9,994 nucleotides of DNA from a virus. Its lineage: Duplodnaviria; Heunggongvirae; Uroviricota; Caudoviricetes. The stretch lies in the IMG/VR virus record IMGVR_UViG_2541047778_000017. The stretch is one strand, 5' to 3'. Under the pieces are notes generated by a model that was not told the origin of the DNA, searched no databases, and was given only the letters and a program-made list of their open reading frames with translations. The position numbers were made by a program, and so were the translations under genes. Positions 1-9,194 of this stretch are shown here, one piece after another (position 1 is the stretch's first letter; every line of letters begins with the position of its first letter).

Positions 1-420
1 ATGACGGATTATCAGCCATACAGGAAAGGAACTGTGCTTGCCCCAACTGGACCATGCAATCATCTTCATGTGATTTGTAATGATCCTGTTTATTACCCCG
101 TTAACGATTGTTATTGTGTTTTAGTTGTTAATATTTCTAGTATCAAGGATGGTGTCCCCCACGATCCGTCTTGCGTCTTGAATTCTGGTGATCATCGCTT
201 TATCAAGCATCCAAGTTATGTTGTTTACGCTGAAGCTATAATTTGGCGAGTGGATAACATGGTTAGAAAGCAGCGATCGGGTGAGATTTCTGTTCATGAT
301 GATATGCCAGAAGCTACATTCAATAGAATTCTGGACGGTTTTGATATCTCTGATGAAGTTACGCCAAAGAACCTTAAATTTAAAAATAAATATTGCGTAT
401 CATCTATTGATGATGAGTAA
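1..420 (+). CDS. PemK/MazF-fold toxin-like protein (139 aa), apparently complete
   Basis: ORF begins at window position 1 with ATG and ends TAA 418-420. By-eye pattern match to Kid/PemK/MazF toxins: N-terminal Y-x-P-x-x-G-x-V motif (YQPYRKGTVLAPTGP), a VLVVNISS segment resembling the conserved VVPVTS-type strand, and a C-terminal SYVVYAEAIIWRVDNMVRKQRSGEISVHDDMPEATFNRILDGF block resembling the GVV...D...R..G.L....E....VL core. No antitoxin-like ORF lies upstream inside the window. Confidence 0.45.
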   Translation: MTDYQPYRKGTVLAPTGPCNHLHVICNDPVYYPVNDCYCVLVVNISSIKDGVPHDPSCVLNSGDHRFIKHPSYVVYAEAIIWRVDNMVRKQRSGEISVHDDMPEATFNRILDGFDISDEVTPKNLKFKNKYCVSSIDDE

Positions 421-459: not shown

Positions 460-633
460 ATGGAAGATCAAAAAGCAACCAAGCCACAGCTTAAGTTCGA
501 CACAATGAAAGCATTCGCAGGTATGGGGGCTGCTGTTGAAGTTCTGATGAAGGCTGCTCCTAATGCGTTCACTCACGCTACTGTCTCTGGTAAAGAGCAG
601 CAGGGTAAGCTTCGTCGTCGCAAAGCAGCATGA
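460..633 (+). CDS. small protein, 57 aa (MEDQKATKPQLKFDTMKAFAGMGAAVEVLMKAAPNAFTHATVSGKEQQGKLRRRKAA), unknown function
   Basis: Not in the ORF track (below its length cut-off). ATG at 460 preceded by GGAG at 450-453 with 6-nt spacing; TGA at 631-633; intrinsic terminator follows within 20 nt. Basic C-terminal tail. Confidence 0.45.
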   Translation: MEDQKATKPQLKFDTMKAFAGMGAAVEVLMKAAPNAFTHATVSGKEQQGKLRRRKAA

Positions 634-1002: not shown

Positions 1003-1869
1003 TTAATTAATAGCATCTTTGCTCTGAAGTACAGCAAATGCCATTAATACCTCTAAAGTATATCGTCTATAAAACTTAACGAATCCAACATAAAAAACAT
1101 AGACGAAGAAAAAGCTAAGTAGCGTCGAAATAGAAATATAAGACACCGCCCCACCTTCTATAGCACGATAAATTAATGTTAGAAATGATATCCAAAATGT
1201 AATTACAAATACTAAACAAATATTTCTGCAAAAACCATATAATGCAACATAGTTTTGAATTTTTGTTTGATGTTGATTAGAAAATTCATAGACGTAATGA
1301 TAAGCCAATCTGAAAAGATCATCATGAAGACCTGTCCTGATGTTTAATAATTTATCGTCTATTCTGAATTTTTTTTCATAACCTTCTTTGATCATTAGCC
1401 ATGTGGTATTAGCTAATTGAAATGGCAATGATTGTGAATAACATAGTTTTTGAGTGGCGTAATCCCATGGTATTATCGGGAATAACATTACTTTGATTAT
1501 GCAGTATTTTATTTTTCTCTTTGTGTCTTCGTTCTGTTTGTCACTTGATGGTGTTAAGACGTTTTTTTTGTCATCTGATAACTTGTTAAATAGATATTCT
1601 GACGGATATTGTAATTCTTCGTTCATATATTTTTCAATAAAAAATGCGGATGTGATAGATATAAAGTGTCCAGCTATGTAAGATATGATTACTATTGAAC
1701 CATAGTTCAAAATGCCAAAGATTTGACTTTGACCTCTGAGCAATTCAGTTAAGTCAATAACAATATCTAGATCGAATGTCAAACCACAGAAATACATTAA
1801 TAGGATAAAAAAACCACCTGGTATTAAATATCCAAGAAAGTCATAGAATGAGAATGGATTTTGATTCAT
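1003..1869 (-). CDS. integral membrane protein with four predicted TM helices (288 aa), unknown family, in an AT-rich segment
   Basis: Hydrophobic stretches FYDFLGYLIPGGFFILLMYFCGL, IFGILNYGSIVIISYIAGHFISITSAFFI, YVALYGFCRNICLVFVITFWISFLTLIY and AVSYISISTLLSFFFVYVFYVGFV, with a ~125-aa hydrophilic domain between TM2 and TM3. Start chosen at ATG 1867-1869 (GGAG 9 nt upstream) rather than the TTG at 1893 used by the track. The gene and its flanks (about 1040-1975) are visibly far more AT-rich than the rest of the window. Confidence 0.65.
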   Translation of the reverse strand: MNQNPFSFYDFLGYLIPGGFFILLMYFCGLTFDLDIVIDLTELLRGQSQIFGILNYGSIVIISYIAGHFISITSAFFIEKYMNEELQYPSEYLFNKLSDDKKNVLTPSSDKQNEDTKRKIKYCIIKVMLFPIIPWDYATQKLCYSQSLPFQLANTTWLMIKEGYEKKFRIDDKLLNIRTGLHDDLFRLAYHYVYEFSNQHQTKIQNYVALYGFCRNICLVFVITFWISFLTLIYRAIEGGAVSYISISTLLSFFFVYVFYVGFVKFYRRYTLEVLMAFAVLQSKDAIN

Positions 1870-1977
1870 TGTTGCTCTCCAATAATTTTTCAATTTGTAA
1901 TATAACCTATATCTATATGTTAATAAATTACTTATATGTTCTTTTATGGCAGAGTTTGAATTCGTACGTGCTGATTT

Positions 1978-2502
1978 TTACGACTCAGTTAACTCTTTAA
2001 AGCGTTCCATAAACATCCCATAGGCATGGCCTGGCGACAGTGGAATAACTTTGAACATCTCTGTTGCCGGGATACCTTCCAGTACAGGCCAGAAAGAGCC
2101 ATCATCAAGCCCGAGATCGCGGCGTTCGGTTGCCAGCATGATGAGATCGGCATATTTCACAGGCGTGCTCATAACCGTGGGTAACCCGTATTTCTCACGG
2201 ATTACGGCGTCTATTTTTTCTTCCATCCGTTTATAGTCAGGAAGAAGGCGTTTCAGCGGCGTGGGGATGTCCTGGCAATACGCTTCTGTTGCATCATGCA
2301 TTAACGCTTCAAAAGCAAATTCCTGCGGCACCAGCTGGCTGCAAAGCACCGCATGTTGGGCGACACTGTAGAAGTGTGAAAGATGACCGGCAAAGCGACA
2401 GATATTTGAAAGGGAAACCGCGATATCGTTAATCACGATGTCGTCTTTATTTATCCTGTCATAATAAAAATGCTTCCCGGAAAAAGTTTTAATAAATGAC
2501 AT
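1978..2502 (-). CDS. yfdR: HD-domain phosphohydrolase, YfdR-like (174 aa)
   Basis: HD signature present (RFAGHLSHFYSVAQHAV ... LMHDATEAY). Sequence and length match my recollection of CPS-53 YfdR. Start at ATG 2500-2502 with GGAG 6-9 nt upstream (the track start at 2532 adds 10 residues without an RBS). Confidence 0.7.
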   Translation of the reverse strand: MSFIKTFSGKHFYYDRINKDDIVINDIAVSLSNICRFAGHLSHFYSVAQHAVLCSQLVPQEFAFEALMHDATEAYCQDIPTPLKRLLPDYKRMEEKIDAVIREKYGLPTVMSTPVKYADLIMLATERRDLGLDDGSFWPVLEGIPATEMFKVIPLSPGHAYGMFMERFKELTES

Positions 2503-2629
2503 TTTGTTCTCCGCGTATATGTGCTGCACCACGCTGAATTCTGGTAAAAGGAAGCCCTCACCATCCGGCGATTATTGAGTCAATTACGTTTCCATAAATG
2601 CCCCCGCAGGGGCATTTGCAGTAATGAAA

Positions 2630-3454
2630 TCAGGCGGTGAAAGTACCAATAAAGGTTTCTACTTTGCTGTCTTTGAATTTCTCAACAAGCAGATCACGAA
2701 ATTCGTTAGCCATTTCTTCCTGCACCGCCTCCAGCTGAATAATGCGCAGAACCAGTACAGGACGATCGCCAGTGATAATGCTGAGGCGTAATTTAAATGG
2801 ACGTTCTTTCAGACCTTCAAACGGAACGCATTTAAATTCAAATGCCACTGGCATAATGTCTTTGGTCTTCGCTTCGACAGATTCCATCAGGGAGCGTTTG
2901 CCGCTGAAGTCATTATCTTCAAAATCAGCGGTCTGGTTTGCTTCAATCGTGATTTTACGGACTGCCGCAGCCGCTTTTGTTGCCTGAATGGCGTCACCAT
3001 TAGCATCAAAGCCCACAAGATAGTCGGCCCAGTCTTCAATCCATTCTGCCAGTGACTTCTGGGAGTTACGCTCGCCATTAACAGACAGCAGGGCAGAGAA
3101 CGGTGCTGTCTTTTTCAGTTTGAGAGTGGCGGTGTTATCTGCGTGACCTGGTTCATCAATAGTACCCAGGTTAAGCACACTGATGGCTCGCATATTATCG
3201 GCATCGATAAAGCAGCGGGTGCCTTCATCTGCAAGATCTTTAGAATAACGGGTAAAGTCATCGATGCTGGCAGTGGAAAGCGCACCACGGAAACGGAAGC
3301 GATTTAAATTAAATTTTTCCAGATCATGAATGCGGAAATTCTCAGGCAATGCCACAGCATCGGCACCAATCTTACTGATAATTTCATTAACACCCTGAGC
3401 AGAAATAAGGGCATGGATTTGATTAATTGCGGTTGCGTCTAAGTTCTGAGACAT
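2630..3454 (-). CDS. yfdQ: YfdQ-like protein of unknown function (274 aa)
   Basis: Full-length ORF with GAGGA 5 nt upstream of ATG 3452-3454. Length and sequence match my recollection of CPS-53 YfdQ, and it sits between yfdP-like and yfdR-like genes as in K-12. Confidence 0.7.
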
Positions 3455-3519
3455 AATAAGTCCTCACTATATTAAGATATTCAGTGATGAGATAAATAAT
3501 CAGTTAATTAAGAACGATA

Positions 3520-3882
3520 TTAATGACCTGCTGCGCGGAGTTTTCCGTCAGGTTCACCGGCAAGAGTCAGTAATTGTCCCTGGTCTTCCTGCAGAATAGT
3601 CAGGCGACCACCGCGATTGACATACATCGGCGTTTCGGTGGTGTCTTCTTCGGAAATTTTCCCGCGGTTAGTCGGGCGAACATATGAGAGTTTGTGTTTG
3701 ATTTTCACACGGTTCTCATCAAATGGTTCGATTTCCAGGTTGAGCGAGACCTTACCTTTGTTTTTCGTGTTCATCACACCGGAAGCGACTTCACTGAGAA
3801 CAGCGCCGATTTTAGTTTCAAATACGCCGCCGTCCAGCTCCCCGATAAATGCCTGCACATCAGTACTGCGTTCGCTAGCCAT
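3520..3882 (-). CDS. yfdP: YfdP-like protein (120 aa)
   Basis: Start chosen at ATG 3880-3882 (MASERSTDVQAFIGELDGG...) with AGGAG 7 nt upstream. The 62-codon N-terminal extension of the track ORF (to 4068) overlaps the hairpin region and has no RBS. The 120-aa length matches recollection of YfdP. Confidence 0.6.
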   Translation of the reverse strand: MASERSTDVQAFIGELDGGVFETKIGAVLSEVASGVMNTKNKGKVSLNLEIEPFDENRVKIKHKLSYVRPTNRGKISEEDTTETPMYVNRGGRLTILQEDQGQLLTLAGEPDGKLRAAGH

Positions 3883-3930
3883 TTTGCTGCTCCTCATCAT
3901 ATCGACCCTGCAAGGTCGGTTGGTTTCTCC

Positions 3931-4066
3931 ACAAAACAGAGAAGAACACCTGCGGTGGCAGCCGCCCGGATGGATTGGGTTATGAGCCCGTCGTCCGGTG
4001 ATGCTCTTCTCTGTTTTGTAAAAAGAGCGGTACCAGCCGGAAGCAAGTGTACAAACTGGTACCGCC
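3931..4066 (-). other. two adjacent perfect inverted repeats (candidate RNA stem-loops) in the leader of the leftward operon
   Basis: Hairpin A: ACAAAACAGAGAAGA (3931-3945) pairs perfectly with TCTTCTCTGTTTTGT (4005-4019), a 15-bp stem enclosing a 59-nt GC-rich loop. Hairpin B: GCGGTACCAG (4027-4036) pairs with CTGGTACCGC (4057-4066), a 10-bp stem with a 20-nt loop. They lie 49-185 nt upstream of the yfdP-like start codon; no plausible ORF overlaps them. Confidence 0.35.
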
Positions 4067-4496
4067 AAAGCAGTGGCTGTTGTGGTGACCGGTGCTGATC
4101 TCCGGCTTGCGGTTATTTCAGACTCTCACGGGCGTTTAATTGCCCCGCCGAACAGCTCTTTTCCGCAATAGCTGCAATGTCTTTCGCGCATCAGCCTGCG
4201 CATTCACCACAACGCTGAGAGCACTTAGCCAGTTACGGCACCACACTTTGTCGCGGTTCCATAAATGCCCTCATCGTTGCACCCTGGTCTCTTCCCAGGT
4301 GTCAAACCGAACCGCCACGCTGGTTAGGCGTCTTATCAGCATCATCATTGACTTGCACATTCCGGCTACCTGGTTTGTTTGCCCGAGCAAGGAGTGGATT
4401 GTCCCCTTTAACATCCCCAGACCGCTAACGACGCATGTGCCATACGCCGTGTTACAACCAAATTTTGTTAGTACCTTGTTTGTAGGTCTGGAAAGA

Positions 4497-4548
4497 AAGA
4501 TAAAATGAAGTTGCGTATTATGCAAGTGTTTTATTGCGAGATATGCAA
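4497..4548 (-). promoter_or_regulatory. candidate leftward early promoter with two operator-like sites (pL/OL analogue)
   Basis: Two near-identical 15-bp sites, TTGCGTATTATGCAA (4511-4525) and TTGCGAGATATGCAA (4534-4548), resemble TTGCGCGTTAAGCAA in the cI-cro intergenic region. On the minus strand, TTGCAT (-35, complement of 4520-4525), a 17-nt spacer and TATCTT (-10, complement of 4497-4502) would start transcription near 4489 heading toward the yfdP-like operon. Confidence 0.3.
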
Positions 4549-4560
4549 TTTGGTGGGTAA

Positions 4561-4586
4561 TGAAAAGCCACCTTCTGGTGGCTAAT
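4561..4586 (-). terminator. rho-independent terminator downstream of the repressor gene
   Basis: Minus-strand reading AGCCACC-AGAA-GGTGGCT followed by TTTTCA, about 20 nt after the repressor stop at 4605-4607. Confidence 0.55.
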
Positions 4587-4604
4587 TGATGTTGAGGTAG
4601 GGGG

Positions 4605-5297
4605 TTAATTGTGTCGCTTAAGGGTCTGTGACTGACTGATTAAGACCTTTCCAAAGACCATAAACCGGTGTTCGTTTTCGCTGGTAATTCCCCATTCACG
4701 GTAAATCTGGTTATCAGAAATTACCAGTAGTTTGTCAGGTATCATTTGCAGTCGTTTGACATAAATTTTATCATCAAAACCAAACACATAGATACCATCC
4801 CCATCAAACTGATTGATACTGATATCAACGAAGATGAGATCTCCTGGCTCAATGGTTGGACACATACTGTCCCCACGAACGTTGATAACTTTAATGTGAT
4901 TGGCTGGTCGTCCTCCAAACATCGATACAGCATTATCAGTTATGTATTCAATGGCATGAATCACATCAATGACATCACCGCCCTGGATAAGGCCATTTCC
5001 CGCACTGACACTGACATCCAGCATTTCAATACGGAATACATCCTTCACCTGCGCAACATCCTCACCAGTACTGTTTTTACATACAGTATTACTTTTGAAG
5101 TCTGAGGTAAAGAGATCTGCAATATCAACACCTAAGCTCCTGGCAATATTACTCAGGGCTTGTTCAGTGAATTGTTTCTGCTTACCTGTTTCCAGGCGTG
5201 AGATATTCGCCGCATCCACTCCTATTGCTTCAGCGAGATCGGCGATTTTCATGTTCTTCGCCTGGCGAAGTTGTCTGACTCGATTTCCTATGCTCAT
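4605..5297 (-). CDS. phage repressor, cI/LexA-like: N-terminal HTH plus C-terminal S24 autopeptidase domain (230 aa)
   Basis: N-terminal HTH (VRQLRQAKNMKIADLAEAIGVDAANISRLETGKQ) and C-terminal S24 signatures (VRGDSMCPTI with the Ser nucleophile; IYVKRL with the Lys general base). Divergent from a cro-like gene across a 97-bp operator region. Confidence 0.9.
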   Translation of the reverse strand: MSIGNRVRQLRQAKNMKIADLAEAIGVDAANISRLETGKQKQFTEQALSNIARSLGVDIADLFTSDFKSNTVCKNSTGEDVAQVKDVFRIEMLDVSVSAGNGLIQGGDVIDVIHAIEYITDNAVSMFGGRPANHIKVINVRGDSMCPTIEPGDLIFVDISINQFDGDGIYVFGFDDKIYVKRLQMIPDKLLVISDNQIYREWGITSENEHRFMVFGKVLISQSQTLKRHN

Positions 5298-5394
5298 GCG
5301 TTTATTACATTTCTTTATTGCGCGTTAAGCAAATCAACTTGCGCAAAATATTTGCGTGAAATAATATGCTTACCACGCAATATGTGGAGGTTAT
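5298..5394. promoter_or_regulatory. divergent promoter/operator region (OR with pR and pRM analogues)
   Basis: Operator-like sites TTGCGCGTTAAGCAA (5318-5332), palindromic TTGCGCAA (5339-5346) and ATGCTTACCACGCAA (5366-5380, reverse complement TTGCGTGGTAAGCAT). Candidate pR: -35 TTGCGC (5339-5344), 17-nt spacer, -10 TAATAT (5362-5367). Candidate pRM on the minus strand: -35 TTGCTT (complement of 5327-5332), 17-nt spacer, -10 TGTAAT (complement of 5304-5309), ending 6 nt before the cI ATG, which implies a leaderless or near-leaderless cI mRNA. Confidence 0.45.
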
Positions 5395-5655
5395 ATGCAA
5401 TCACCATTACGAAATGTGCGTAAGGCGCACGGATTTACTTTGCAGCATGTTGCTGCGGGTGTTCAGGTTAATCCAGCGACGCTGAGTCGTATTGAAAGAC
5501 TGGAACAAATTCCATCTATCGATCTTGCAGAACGTCTGGCCAATTTTTTTAAGGGTGAAATCAGCGAAATGCAGATTCTTTATCCGGCACGTTTTCAATC
5601 TAGCCAAAACCAGAATGGGTTTAAACCACAGGAACAGGAGGTAAGCCGTGGGTAA
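5395..5655 (+). CDS. Cro-like XRE-family HTH regulator (86 aa)
   Basis: HTH motif FTLQHVAAGVQVNPATLSRIERLEQIPS; GGAGG 4 nt upstream of ATG 5395; divergent from the repressor. Its 3' end overlaps the start of the next gene. Confidence 0.8.
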   Translation: MQSPLRNVRKAHGFTLQHVAAGVQVNPATLSRIERLEQIPSIDLAERLANFFKGEISEMQILYPARFQSSQNQNGFKPQEQEVSRG

Positions 5656-6205
5656 GCATCACTGGAAAGTGGAAAAACAACCTGAGTGGTACGTGAAAGC
5701 TGTCAGAAAAACTATCGCGGCATTGCCTGGGGGTTACGCTGAAGCTGCTGACTGGCTGGATGTAACAGAGAACGCTTTATTCAACCGCCTTCGTGCAGAT
5801 GGCGATCAGATTTTCCCGCTGGGATGGGCAATGATTTTGCAACGTGCTGGTGGAACTCACTTCATTGCTGACGCTGTGGCGCAGTCTGCAAATGGCGTCT
5901 TTGTGTCTCTTCCTGACGTCGAGGATGTGGACAACGCCGATATTAACCAGCGCCTGCTGGAAGTCATCGAACAGATCGGGAGTTACTCAAAGCAGATTCG
6001 TTCGGCAATCGAAGATGGGGTAGTGGAGCCACACGAGCAGACAGCAATTAATGATGAGTTGTATCTGTCAATTTCGAAGCTCCAGGAGCATGCAGCACTG
6101 GTCTACAAAATCTTCTGCGCTCCAGAAAAGAGTAACGCCCGCGAGTGTGCAGCTCCGGGCGTCGTGGCGTCGATTGCTTCTGGTTGTGGAGAAACTAACG
6201 CATGA
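5648..6205 (+). CDS. CII-like phage regulatory protein (phage 186 CII / CP76-type), 185 aa
   Basis: GTG start at 5648 with AGGAGG at 5636-5641 (6-nt spacing), overlapping the cro-like stop at 5653-5655. Position immediately after cro and overall sequence character recall the CP76-type CII family; this assignment is from memory only. Confidence 0.55.
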   Translation: MGKHHWKVEKQPEWYVKAVRKTIAALPGGYAEAADWLDVTENALFNRLRADGDQIFPLGWAMILQRAGGTHFIADAVAQSANGVFVSLPDVEDVDNADINQRLLEVIEQIGSYSKQIRSAIEDGVVEPHEQTAINDELYLSISKLQEHAALVYKIFCAPEKSNARECAAPGVVASIASGCGETNA

Positions 6206-6350
6206 ACAGTTTAACGGCAAATAACCGTTTGTCGCAACAGCTGGTGGTCAGCGTCGCTGAACACCTGTTGTTACGGCATGAATGCAGATTACCAAATCAC
6301 CTGGCTGTAAGTAACCACAGAGAACTTTACCTGACTGTGGGGGGCGAGTT

Positions 6351-6530
6351 GTGCAGGAACTTAACCGCTGGTTTCGTGACGGAAGAGGGCTTTATGTCCA
6401 TGTTATTCGTTGGGAGCCAGAAACACAGCGCGTTATCTATCTTCGCAAAGACTACCCGCATGAGTGCTTTAGTCCTTTGTGGAAATTCAGGCGTGATTTT
6501 GTTGAGTGTGAAGGACCACCAGCATATTGA
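6351..6530 (+). CDS. candidate small protein, 59 aa (VQELNRWFRDGRGLYVHVIRWEPETQRVIYLRKDYPHECFSPLWKFRRDFVECEGPPAY), GTG start
   Basis: Not in the ORF track. Alternate frame inside the long 6202..7353 ORF, bounded by TAA 6312-6314 and TGA 6528-6530. Its composition is protein-like (W, Y, mixed charge), unlike the overlapping long frame. G-rich stretch 6338-6343 could serve as an SD; a LexA-box-like palindrome lies 31 nt upstream. Confidence 0.3.
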   Translation: MQELNRWFRDGRGLYVHVIRWEPETQRVIYLRKDYPHECFSPLWKFRRDFVECEGPPAY

Positions 6531-6807
6531 TTCTGCAATTCCGGGACGTTACACTGCTCAGGCACCTTATAAAGCGGGTGCCGGGCGTGGAAACCCGAAA
6601 TTCAATATAGAGCACAACCGCGCTCATGCGGTTTTTTCGTGTCATGAGCATCGTTACGCCCAAATTATGGTGGGGCGTGCAGGGCCAACTTCGGTTGGGC
6701 CGGGTTCTATGTTGACCGGTATTTCCACCCCTGTACGTCTCACCACCTATATGGTCGTGGAAAGCCTTGGTGGTGAGTTCATTGAATTCAACATAGGGGC
6801 TGTCACC

Positions 6808-7353
6808 ATGACTACTCTCCCAACCCAATCTCACCCTGAAATCACGATTATCAATGGTCGCGTTGTTACCACATCTTTTGCAGTAGCTAATTACTTTACT
6901 AAACGGCATGAGCGGGTTTTAGATAGAATTAGAAACCTCGAATGTTCCGCTGAATTTACTGAACACAATTTTGTGTTAAGTGAATACACCGACGCATCAG
7001 GCCGCAAACTCCCTTGTTACCAAATCACCCGCGACGGTTTTGCGTTTCTTGCCATGGGCTTCACTGGTAAACGTGCTGCCCGGTTCAAAGAGGCATACAT
7101 AAATGCCTTTAACCAGATGGAAAAACTGCTTTCAAAGCCATCCACGCTGAGCGATGCCGCAGATAACGCCAGCGTGCTTTACTCCCACCTGTCGGTAATC
7201 CACAAGGTCTGGCTGCAGCAGCTTTATCCCATGTTGGCAAAAGCCGAATCCCCGCTGGCTGTAAGTCTGTATGACCGCATCAACGACGCGGCGCTACTGG
7301 CCAGTCTCATAAATTTGTCGCTGAACCCTTCAGAGGTAAGGGGGCGCAAATGA
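6808..7353 (+). CDS. Rha-family phage regulatory protein (181 aa from ATG 6808; the frame is open upstream to ATG 6202)
   Basis: MTTLPTQSHPEITIINGRVVTTSFAVANYFTKRHERVLDRIRNLECS...YQITRDGFAFLAMGFTGKRAARFKEAYINAFNQME matches my recollection of the Phage_pRha domain, which is normally N-terminal. AGGGG lies 8 nt upstream of ATG 6808. The 202 in-frame codons upstream are His/Ser/Arg/Gly-rich and poor in Asp/Lys, which argues against their being coding, although the ATG at 6202 overlaps the cII-like stop (ATGA). Confidence 0.65.
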   Translation: MTTLPTQSHPEITIINGRVVTTSFAVANYFTKRHERVLDRIRNLECSAEFTEHNFVLSEYTDASGRKLPCYQITRDGFAFLAMGFTGKRAARFKEAYINAFNQMEKLLSKPSTLSDAADNASVLYSHLSVIHKVWLQQLYPMLAKAESPLAVSLYDRINDAALLASLINLSLNPSEVRGRK

Positions 7354-7574: not shown

Positions 7575-7870
7575 ACTGTTTTCAGTTTGTGTGCGGATGT
7601 GCTTTCGATAACCCGATTCAGCGCCTGATTATGTTGCGTGTTTTGATGTCGGGTTCTTCAGACGGTGAAGGCGAGAGAGTTATTGATCATCAGGTGCTTG
7701 CTGATTTCTGCTGTTGTTCTAAGCAAGCGATATTCAGGGAAACCCTGGCACTGGAAAGAGCTGGTTATCTTCATATCCGAAAAATTGCAACGCTTACTAT
7801 TGATGCAAAAGCCAGACTACAACCTGCGCGTGGCTACACAATTCTCATGCTGCGGAAGGAGGTTGTATGA
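7571..7870 (+). CDS. hypothetical protein (99 aa), possibly winged-helix
   Basis: GTG 7571 with GGAGG 7 nt upstream; stop TGA 7868-7870 overlaps the ATG of the replication gene (ATGA). The segment VLADFCCCSKQAIFRETLALERAGYLHIRK resembles a DNA-binding helix pair. Confidence 0.5.
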   Translation: MNCFQFVCGCAFDNPIQRLIMLRVLMSGSSDGEGERVIDHQVLADFCCCSKQAIFRETLALERAGYLHIRKIATLTIDAKARLQPARGYTILMLRKEVV

Positions 7871-8862
7871 GCCGTTACGCCCCCACACCGGAAGTTATGG
7901 CTATTGGTCAAATTAATATTTCCGGCAATGTTACACCTGCGACCTGGTGGAAATATATTCGACTACCCAGTGGGCGTCCGGATGCGACGGCTATCGCTCT
8001 GCTTTCAGAGATCGTTTACTGGTACCGCCCGACAGAGGTCAGGGATGAGCACACCGGAGCGTTGCTGGGATATCGCAAGCGTTTTCAGGGCGACAAACTG
8101 CAAAGAAGCTACCAGGCGTTTGCTGAGCAGTTTGGTTTCGGGAAAAGGGAAACCGCAGATGCGCTGAAGCGTCTGCGCGATGCAGGGTTTATTACTCTGG
8201 ATTTACGCACGGTGGAAATGCTCGATGGGGTGAAATGCAGCAATATTTTGTTTGTCGGGATCAACCCACAGGCAATTGCGGCCATCACCACACCTTCTTC
8301 TGTTTCGCCAGAAAGTAACAGCAATAATGCAATCAGCGATACAGCTATTACGTTAAAACGGAACACCCCCCGACGTCATAACGGAACAGGGGATACGCCG
8401 AATGTTGATACAAATACAGAGATTACTACAGAGATTACTACAGAGATTACAACGGAGACTAAAAACACTATTGGCGCATCCGCTGACGCGTCTGCACCAG
8501 CGCGTTCTGCCAGACAGGAATATTCACCGGAATTTGAACAGGCCTGGCAGGAATATCCCAAACGTGCTGGTGGTAATTCAAAATCCGCCGCTTTTAAAGC
8601 CTGGAAAGCCCGAATCAGGGAAGGTGTGACACCCGAAACCATGCTCGACGGTGTGAAACGCTATGCCGCCTGGGTGCGTGTCTCTGGAAATACCGGTACC
8701 CAGTTCGTGAAGCAGGCGTCGACGTTCTTTGGTCCGGATCGTCATTTCGAAGAATCCTGGGAAGTTCCTGCGGTATCTGCAGTCAGACGCGAGGACCCGT
8801 ACTTCAAAGCCAGTTACGACAACGTGGACTACAGCCAGATCCCGGCAGGATTCAGGGGGTGA
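7867..8862 (+). CDS. phage replication initiation / replisome-organizer protein (O-like N-terminal DNA-binding domain, DnaD-like C-terminal domain), 331 aa
   Basis: Perfect AGGAGG 4 nt upstream of ATG 7867. N-terminal winged-helix-like region (ALKRLRDAGFITLDLRT), a low-complexity linker encoded by tandem repeats (NTEITTEITTEITTETK), and a C-terminal EFEQAWQEYPKRAGG...KAWKARI...FFGPDRHFEESWE block that matches the pattern F..W..YP.K......A...W of DnaD-like/replisome-organizer C-terminal domains as I recall it. Confidence 0.7.
   Translation: MSRYAPTPEVMAIGQINISGNVTPATWWKYIRLPSGRPDATAIALLSEIVYWYRPTEVRDEHTGALLGYRKRFQGDKLQRSYQAFAEQFGFGKRETADALKRLRDAGFITLDLRTVEMLDGVKCSNILFVGINPQAIAAITTPSSVSPESNSNNAISDTAITLKRNTPRRHNGTGDTPNVDTNTEITTEITTEITTETKNTIGASADASAPARSARQEYSPEFEQAWQEYPKRAGGNSKSAAFKAWKARIREGVTPETMLDGVKRYAAWVRVSGNTGTQFVKQASTFFGPDRHFEESWEVPAVSAVRREDPYFKASYDNVDYSQIPAGFRG
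8416..8460. repeat. tandem 12-bp repeat (ACAGAGATTACT, about 3.75 copies) inside the replication initiator gene; candidate origin iterons
   Basis: ACAGAGATTACT at 8416-8427 and 8428-8439, ACAGAGATTACA at 8440-8451, partial ACGGAGACT at 8452-8460. A separate 9-bp direct repeat AACGGAACA occurs at 8356-8364 and 8379-8387, just upstream. Confidence 0.8.
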
Positions 8863-8864
8863 GC

Positions 8865-9194
8865 ATGAGTCTTTTGAATGACGTTCAGAAATTCATTGAA
8901 GCCCATCCGGGGTGTACTTCCGGAGACATTGCGGATGCTTTTGCTGGTTACTCACGGCAGCGCGTTCTGCAGTCAGCAAGCAAGTTACGTCAGAGTGGGC
9001 GTGTGGCTCACCGTTGTGAAGGAGATACACGCAGACATTTCCCACGCCTGACTGAGAGAGCGCAGGATCCGGAACCACAACCAGTTCGTGAAACCAGACC
9101 TGTGCGCAATTTCTATGTCGGCACTAACGACCCGCGGGTGATTTTGTGCCTGACCCGCCAGGCGGAAAAACTGGTCAGGGAGATGGCGGCATGA
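8865..9194 (+). CDS. hypothetical protein (109 aa from ATG 8865; alternative GTG at 8859 overlaps the upstream stop)
   Basis: GGGGG at 8855-8859 lies 5 nt upstream of ATG 8865; its stop TGA 9192-9194 overlaps the next ATG (ATGA). N-terminal region (FIEAHPGCTSGDIADAFAGYSRQRVLQSASKLRQSGRV) looks winged-helix-like. No family recognised. Confidence 0.5.
   Translation: MSLLNDVQKFIEAHPGCTSGDIADAFAGYSRQRVLQSASKLRQSGRVAHRCEGDTRRHFPRLTERAQDPEPQPVRETRPVRNFYVGTNDPRVILCLTRQAEKLVREMAA

Follow-up and report, generated by a model that had tools for sequence, protein, structure and literature searches.

The DNA considered here is a 9,994-nucleotide stretch of a virus assigned to the Caudoviricetes (IMG/VR record IMGVR_UViG_2541047778_000017), which we refer to in its full length as the window. 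Our subject is a module of three consecutive minus-strand genes at positions 1978–3882, together with the leader RNA and the immunity region that lie upstream of it. From the sequence alone the genes had been taken for relatives of yfdP, yfdQ and yfdR, which in Escherichia coli K-12 reside in CPS-53. The K-12 MG1655 proteins of that region (NC_000913.3) were used as reference for BLASTP, and the assignment was upheld: YfdP shares 118 of 120 residues with its K-12 counterpart (98%), YfdQ 271 of 274 (99%) and YfdR 165 of 173 (95%, E 3e-130), so that low identity was seen for none of the three. The longest open reading frames (ORFs) run from 1978 to 2532, 2630 to 3454 and 3520 to 4068. That of yfdR begins with a GTG at 2532, and the ATG equivalent to the K-12 start lies at 2502. 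The protein read from this ATG stops 4 residues short of the K-12 protein end because homology to K-12 ends at 1983, at the 3′ end of yfdR. In the genomes that match best, RefSeq gives these genes the labels yfdP, YfdQ family protein and yfdR 5′-deoxynucleotidase. The three genes are as follows.

1978–2502, minus strand: yfdR, an HD-domain 5′-deoxynucleotidase-like protein of 174 amino acids (K-12 identity, Pfam, PHROG, PDB).
2630–3454, minus strand: yfdQ, a DUF2303 protein of 274 amino acids.
3520–3882, minus strand: yfdP, a protein of 120 amino acids, here the first gene of the operon.

YfdR exceeds the Pfam cut-off for YfbR-like HD proteins only marginally (27.3 bits, cut-off 25.9), and is matched by PHROG 318, described as deoxyribonucleoside 5′ monophosphate (dNMP) phosphatase, at E 8.5e-109 and by the uncharacterised HD protein PDB 2gz4 at E 1e-11. 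The metal-binding motif of HD proteins (H...HD...D) can be followed through its translation, with QH, MHD and QD all found. On the YfbR equivalog model (NCBIfam NF003009) it scores 22.2 bits against a cut-off of 122, which indicates that YfdR is not the YfbR equivalog. E. coli YfbR (PDB 2paq) has the same HD fold and motif, yet the phmmer E-value of YfdR to 2paq is only 0.31, and the nucleotide affinity of YfdR is reported to be much lower than that of YfbR (PMC4776307). YfdQ matches Pfam DUF2303 (PF10065) over its full length, with 308 bits across profile positions 2–269 of 269. It has a solved homologue in PDB 9o7m (‘YfdQ Protein’, E 1.6e-44), an entry with 36 chains of that sequence; no paper citing 9o7m was found. 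YfdP gave no family match in a local Pfam scan, and its homologues carry PF27127. Both YfdP and YfdQ belong to large PHROGs without known function, and neither these two proteins nor YfdR matched a PADLOC defence model.

Rightward of yfdP there is a 720-bp gap without a credible gene, followed by genes for CI, a divergent Cro and a CII-like protein. The features of the gap and of the region beyond it, which are needed for the remainder of this analysis, are listed here.

3880–4022, minus strand: structured leader RNA of about 140 nt, called here the type A element, recognised from covariation and conservation.
4020–4066, minus strand: inverted repeat forming a hairpin (arms 4065–4056 and 4036–4027, 10/10 complementary), then a U-run (4024–4020).
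4079–4213, minus strand: STnc100/PasD-like prophage RNA unit of about 135 nt, closed by a 10-bp stem formed by an inverted repeat (GUUGUGGUGA / UCACCACAAC).
4286–4463, minus strand: non-coding segment of the distal leader, sharing 78% identity with the stretch directly after the tRNA-Met of phage P1.
4511–4525 (TTGCGTATTATGCAA) and 4534–4548 (TTGCGAGATATGCAA), minus strand: OL operators, both perfect TTGC-N7-GCAA.
4566–4583, minus strand: intrinsic terminator after cI, AGCCACCAGAAGGTGGCT then TTTTCATT, from a terminator scan.
4605–5297, minus strand: cI-type repressor of 230 amino acids, with a helix-turn-helix (HTH) and a LexA-like S24 self-cleaving domain.
5318–5332 (perfect) and 5366–5380 (one mismatch), between cI and cro: OR operators, TTGC-N7-GCAA.
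5395–5655, plus strand: cro-like HTH protein of 86 amino acids (Pfam HTH_3, 5.8e-10).
5648–6205, plus strand: cII-like regulator of the Phage_CP76 family (Pfam 2.2e-13), labelled ymfL in E. coli strain E2.

The sequence-only reading had placed the module downstream of a complete immunity region with an intact repressor and cro, and the domains of CI, the Cro protein and the paired operators all support this description. CI matches Pfam Peptidase_S24 at 1e-18 in addition to HTH_3/HTH_26, and the motifs for self-cleavage are found in its translation, namely the Ala-Gly site (VSAGNG), the serine in GDSM and the lysine in VKR. Clustered intergenic TTGC-N7-GCAA sites that are perfect or nearly so number only four, two of them at OL and two at OR, and OL adjoins the cI terminator on its downstream side. 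This pairing is the expected OL/OR layout. Judged by these motifs, the lambdoid immunity region is complete, with a CI of the cleavable type, a divergent Cro and the same type of operator at both OL and OR.

The leader between the operators and yfdP had been called structured, a claim that is substantiated by a folding z-score of −4.5 for the segment 3883–4500 of the minus strand, by covariation and by a covariance model. In the type A element a long helix, P1 (4019–4000 with 3950–3931), encloses the hairpins P2 and P3. P2 consists of P2a (3998–3994 with 3970–3966) and P2b (3989–3987 with 3979–3977, loop CUCAUAA), and P3 is formed by 3965–3962 with 3955–3952. A small hairpin, P4 (3918–3915 with 3906–3903), stands ahead of the ribosome-binding site GAGGAG, which is followed by the yfdP ATG at 3882. 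Among 28 non-redundant sequences, 98.1% of the cells in the alignment were paired and nine pairs had changed on both sides (48 cells), compared with 36–49% paired and at most 10 both-side-change cells in slid controls. A second set, of 20 species-representative genomes from Escherichia, Shigella, Citrobacter, Enterobacter, Kosakonia, Mixta, Leclercia, Buttiauxella, Erwinia, Klebsiella and others, gave 99.0% paired and eight covarying pairs, values that are biased toward the structure by an alignment that had been fitted to the model. The fold of the leader RNA is demonstrated by this covariation. With the covariance model, the yfdP-sense strand reaches 127 bits and the antisense strand 43 bits; G-U pairs therefore favour an RNA that is transcribed with the operon.

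The type A element is more conserved than the gene that follows it, with nucleotide identities of 82–93% beside YfdP homologues whose protein identity to the YfdP of the window is only about 60%. An invariant-core scan of viral contigs identified 120 loci, and YfdP begins 80–110 nt downstream of the core in 92 of them. A different first gene was found in 23 loci, this being an RdgC-family gene, yfdR directly, a gene for a DUF551 protein or others; the remaining five contigs end before the first gene can be told. Because different first genes stand behind it, the type A element belongs to the operon leader and not to yfdP, and first genes of the RdgC, DUF551 and YfdR kinds would fit a slot for DNA-metabolism genes. 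The element occurs across Enterobacterales and in 46% of complete E. coli genomes (2493 of 5426), in which the region it covers is either unannotated or at most labelled a hypothetical protein. Each of 48 phage loci, among them a 40-kb prophage, had exactly one copy. Rfam 15 gave no match to the leader, positions 3850–4620 being empty at E≤10, and no paper containing the sequence of the type A element was found.

Several other identities were considered for the leader. The P2b hairpin (GGG-CUCAUAA-CCC) has 14 nt, CGGGCUCAUAACCC, in common with the anticodon arm of the K-12 initiator tRNA-fMet. The loop of P2b is CUCAUUC, UUCAUAU or AACUAA in some relatives and in the weaker P1 copies, and given this variability specific mimicry and an origin from tRNA are equally likely. 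The presence of a tRNA gene in the leader was rejected, as ARAGORN found none in the window and Rfam gave no tRNA match. The putL/putR RNAs of phage HK022 form a pair, each with two adjacent stem-loops, whereas the type A element has one copy and a long closing helix around two hairpins. A second copy on the pR side, as a put-like pair would have, was not found, and the element is set apart from put-type RNA by copy number and architecture, the put sequence itself not being part of the comparison. Two hypothetical plus-strand ORFs annotated inside the leader of phage mEp460 (gp36 and gp37) are unlikely to be genes, since conservation and covariation track the RNA helices of the other strand. 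A small ORF beginning AUG/GUG-GAG-AAA after helix P1 was also discarded, its frame and length not being conserved in an alignment of relatives.

The distal part of the leader contains units of a different kind. The hairpin and U-run at 4020–4066 look like an intrinsic terminator of an sRNA-like unit upstream of them; the stem sequence differs in relatives, in which hairpin and U-run are retained. In most relatives an RprA-like seed, UUGCUGUGUGUAGUCUU, stands ahead of the hairpin and U-run, and this seed is missing from the window copy. The relatives' hairpin unit scores below threshold in Rfam against the 3′ half of RprA (44.4 bits, gathering 70) and against DicF (33–34.3 bits, gathering 48), as seen at loci L131 (2704–2840), L108 (2809–2857) and L087 (2807–2856), the equivalent in the window being 4020–4075. 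The resemblance suggests that relatives may encode a phage mimic of a host sRNA, either a near-copy of the RprA 3′ half or a DicF-like RNA. We rejected a boxA/nut reading of CGCUCUUUUUACAA at 4029–4016 because relatives carry CGCCCUUUUU or CACCUUUUUU after unrelated hairpins, for which a terminator U-run is the better fit.

The unit at 4079–4213 is 96% identical to a segment of phage P1 just downstream of tRNA-Thr, and the closing stem of the P1 copy carries a compensatory change (GAUGA/UCAUC). A recent preprint (Zhu, Shabalina & Storz 2026, 10.64898/2026.05.13.724894) connects PasD with STnc100 (RF02076, gathering 47), a family of prophage-encoded sRNAs. STnc100 matches the relatives' unit at 41.9 bits over the whole model and the P1 copy at 33.9 bits, and the window's own copy has no Rfam match. 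The distal leader unit is akin to STnc100/PasD, yet all of these scores are below gathering, and the proximal type A element has a different structure. The units of the distal leader (4079–4463) are homologous to repeats behind the tRNA-Thr and tRNA-Met genes of P1 (locus L005, 300–2220), and a core of about 40 nt, GUGAAUGCGCAGGCUGAUGCGC, is found again outside coding sequence in numerous unrelated phages, including the late leader of HK620, phiV10 and Klebsiella phages.

We compared the window with the cryptic prophage CPS-53 (KplE1) of K-12, in which yfdP-yfdQ-yfdR (b2359–b2361) have the same gene order and spacing. At the DNA level, 1983–3901 is 97.1% identical to K-12 yfdR..yfdP over 1919 bp. 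Only one other block is shared, 8787–9174, which holds the yfdO C-terminus and the yfdN N-terminus (98.2%) and has the same order and orientation; the 4.9 kb between the blocks in the window correspond to 631 bp in K-12. K-12 homology begins only 19 bp ahead of the yfdP ATG, and upstream of that point CPS-53 has no leader RNA, type A element included, no OL/pL and no cI/cro, and carries instead iteron-like repeats bound by the host regulator SrsR. The gene content beyond yfdR is different as well: K-12 has yfdS, yfdT, ypdJ and torI, and the window has a PrtN-type excisionase gene and the gene listed next.

1003–1893, minus strand: multi-pass membrane protein of 296 amino acids, about 30% GC (rest of the window 45–55%), PHROG 12528, function unknown.

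This gene fills the place that yfdS, yfdT and further early-left genes occupy in most relatives. No tblastn match to K-12 YfdS or YfdT was found in the window at E≤1e-3, nor were yfdS and yfdT seen in the syntenic relative, strain E2, up to the prophage end. E2 is the closest genome (98.1% identity, 90% coverage), and its prophage lies in dusA, not argW. The sequence-only reading had seen in the window a more complete relative of the CPS-53 ancestor. This is too strong a description of two shared mosaic blocks and a prophage in dusA, and the alignments instead indicate a mosaic relative with which CPS-53 has modules in common.

The K-12 control region has a history of its own. SrsR (YgfI) has its strongest genomic target in the yfdO/yfdP spacer, and the yfdPQ mRNA is growth-phase regulated in K-12 (PMC9181523). 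The four K-12 SrsR boxes (TCAGATTTTGA and variants; locus L001, 9440–9520) are iteron-like direct repeats whose junction with the yfdP region lies 19 bp ahead of the yfdP start. Because the spacer is made of such repeats, the region that controls yfdPQ in K-12 appears to have arisen by rearrangement and not to be the phage's own promoter region. The window contains no cluster of SrsR boxes, the single site with one mismatch lying inside the cII-like gene.

The arrangement seen in the window is neither rare nor new. The three-gene module occurs in 3012 of the 5426 complete E. coli genomes, and the junction of yfdP, leader and cI in 645. The block from yfdR to cro is 97–98% identical in the cultured phages mEp460, PhiR63_1, Stx2a_1447, Stx2a_WGPS2, 1720a-02 and phiSTEC1575-Stx2k. 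In mEp460 (NC_019716), gp33–gp39 match from yfdR through cro at 97.8% over 3.7 kb and the whole leader at 99.2%, with the same cI and cro alleles; phage cdtI is counted among the mEp460-related phages. After yfdR, mEp460 has a 120-amino-acid SfV p29-like gene in the yfdS position and then small ORFs, Ea22-like, DUF551, exonuclease, excisionase and integrase genes, whereas the window has one membrane-protein gene ahead of the excisionase. Among 80 viral contigs with a 99%-identical YfdP, YfdQ was present in 76, YfdR in 72, YfdS in 55, YfdT in 25 and the window's membrane protein in 1. A cluster of the yfbR/yfdQ/yfdP type has been described as common in lambdoid early-left operons (Genome Res 2025, PMC12315714), with examples in LLS (gp37–39), ST64B (gp35–37), phiNP and ArgO145, and its authors state that the homologues of yfdQ and yfdP have no known function. 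These clusters contain the same three families at the start of the early-left region but are more diverged, LLS and ST64B being 76–90% identical to one another. The yfdPQR module is thus known and very common. The window had been presented as a special opportunity for study, a view that does not hold given the cultured phages and complete genomes with the same block and the published description of the cluster.

We consider it likely that the genes at 1978–3882 are the first three of a CI-repressed early-left (pL) operon in a mosaic lambdoid prophage of the mEp460/SfV/ST64B type. In the lysogen, CI bound to the OL operators would silence the operon. After RecA-stimulated self-cleavage of CI, RNA polymerase would start leftward near 4500–4550, at a pL that is expected from the position of the operators to overlap OL. 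It would transcribe a folded non-coding leader of about 640 nt, comprising the STnc100/PasD-like unit, the hairpin with its U-run and the multi-helix type A element, and then yfdP, yfdQ and yfdR, which would be co-transcribed. YfdR would act as an HD-domain phosphohydrolase with weak 5′-dNMPase activity, its K-12 counterpart also binding domain I of DnaA. YfdQ is probably a large homo-oligomer, because its solved homologue has 36 chains in the entry, and YfdP may be a small partner protein. The most likely role would be a modulation of host or phage DNA metabolism, through the nucleotide pool or replication initiation, early after induction.

Several observations weigh against this interpretation. 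The module had been placed downstream of a candidate pL, and the part of this claim that stands is the OL operators; no sigma-70 site of consensus quality, with at least 9 of 12 matches, was found at 4490–4560, CATAAT inside OL1 being a possible −10 element. The strain E2 prophage has no annotated integrase and carries insertion sequences. Fold searches with YfdP and YfdQ gave no functional clue; 9o7m is absent from the Foldseek copy of the PDB. Deletion of yfdQRST in K-12 produced no replication or hydroxyurea phenotype (PMC4776307).

An alternative is that the module is a device for host takeover, in which YfdR, aided by YfdQ, binds domain I of DnaA upon induction and blocks initiation at oriC, delaying host replication in a yfdR-dependent manner. 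The sequence-only reading had referred to K-12 YfdR as an HD protein that binds DnaA, with overexpression of the cluster inhibiting initiation, and the literature confirms this (Noguchi & Katayama, PMC4776307). Binding of purified YfdR to DnaA domain I is Phe46-dependent, multicopy yfdQRS or yfdQRT suppresses over-initiation in vivo, yfdP being dispensable, and extracts oversupplied with YfdQRST inhibit initiation in vitro (PMC4776307). The YfdR of the window is 95% identical to that protein and its gene would be under early phage control. However, yfdQR without yfdS or yfdT does not suppress over-initiation (PMC4776307), and the window has yfdQ and yfdR of the required set but neither yfdS nor yfdT. 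Because YfdS and YfdT are missing, the published DnaA-dependent block is unlikely to work here as described. The effect was moreover observed only upon overexpression, the deletion has no phenotype, inhibition by pure YfdR is only ‘moderate’ (PMC4776307), and the C-terminus of the window YfdR differs from that of K-12. We therefore regard a takeover device of this kind as unlikely.

Still less probable, in our estimation, is that the module provides an unrecognised recombination or repair function, replacing a Red/RecET-type Rec module in lambdoid phages that have none. The cluster is the early-left content of ‘no Rec module’ phages such as LLS, ST64B and phiNP (PMC12315714), and the same leader elsewhere precedes genes of the RdgC family, which modulate RecA. 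The 36 chains in the 9o7m entry would also suggest a large assembly of the sort that single-strand annealing proteins form. The least credible proposal is that these are domesticated stress-tolerance genes under host control, as in K-12, and not phage early genes: the SrsR target and growth-phase regulation of yfdPQ (PMC9181523) speak for it, as does the contribution of CPS-53 genes to peroxide tolerance (cited in PMC9181523 and PMC4776307), but the K-12 control region is missing here, homology to K-12 ending 19 bp ahead of the yfdP ATG, the rearranged SrsR box cluster is not in the window, and the window genes sit behind OL, a presumed pL and a conserved phage leader.

With regard to the leader, we propose tentatively, and at somewhat less than even probability, that the type A element is a cis-acting RNA, hitherto undescribed, that belongs to the early-left operon in a group of Enterobacterales lambdoid phages without a recognised N-like gene, that it controls whichever gene is first, and that the K-12 yfdPQR copy, which was used in all experiments, has lost it. 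The element could serve, for instance, as a processing and stabilising module for RNase III or RNase P, as a tRNA-like decoy, in antitermination or in translation control. A long structured RNA that separates a leftward promoter under repressor control from the first early gene is likewise found in the lambda N leader (nutL and an RNase III hairpin), in HK022 putL and in the Qin dicB leader that yields DicF. The window leader differs from these in that a boxA/boxB nut site is absent, and none of the window ORFs was recognised as an N-like gene. The published account of the cluster (PMC12315714) does not mention a conserved leader RNA.

The remaining features of the window bear on other parts of the prophage. 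The membrane protein at 1003–1893 has only weak matches, to Csx27 (PADLOC, E 2e-5) and, under the cut-off, to Pfam SieB, and may be a superinfection-exclusion or defence moron. An ORF of 383 amino acids at 6202–7353 (plus strand) contains two Rfam matches within 6549–6750, isrK at 6562–6638 (61.6 bits, gathering 50) and C4 antisense RNA at 6663–6750 (82.4 bits, gathering 45), in addition to a weak c4 a1/b1 target site, all upstream of antirepressor-like Ash/Rha domains. We read 6549–6750 as an RNA switch like that of P1/P7 immI or the IsrK of Gifsy-1. Because these RNAs lie inside the ORF, the N-terminal 200 or so codons of this ‘Rha family’ ORF are probably non-coding. At the prophage end beside the truncated dusA, a 139-amino-acid ORF at 1–420 (plus strand; PHROG 19071, function unknown) adjoins 460–633 (plus strand), labelled a Panacea-domain protein in E. 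coli E2. Panacea being an antitoxin domain of toxin-antitoxin systems, the two may form a toxin-antitoxin pair. The C-terminus of the replication-protein gene at 7867–8862 and the next ORF, 8859–9194, are the homologues of K-12 yfdO/yfdN. Within this gene, at 8415–8458 (plus strand), a 12-bp unit, TACAGAGATTAC, is repeated 3.7 times and encodes TEITTEITTEITTE; these repeats are probably origin iterons within an O-like replication gene.

As a gene finding, the module adds little, for the genes, their K-12 history and their early-left place are on record and cultured phages with an identical block exist. The analysis does caution against extending the K-12 result that YfdR inhibits replication to prophages at large, since the K-12 locus is a decapitated one that lacks the phage promoter, operators and leader, and since the phenotype needs YfdS or YfdT, which are missing from this prophage. 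The leader RNA is the one potentially new item; should it prove functional, a very common group of prophages would have a new regulatory RNA.

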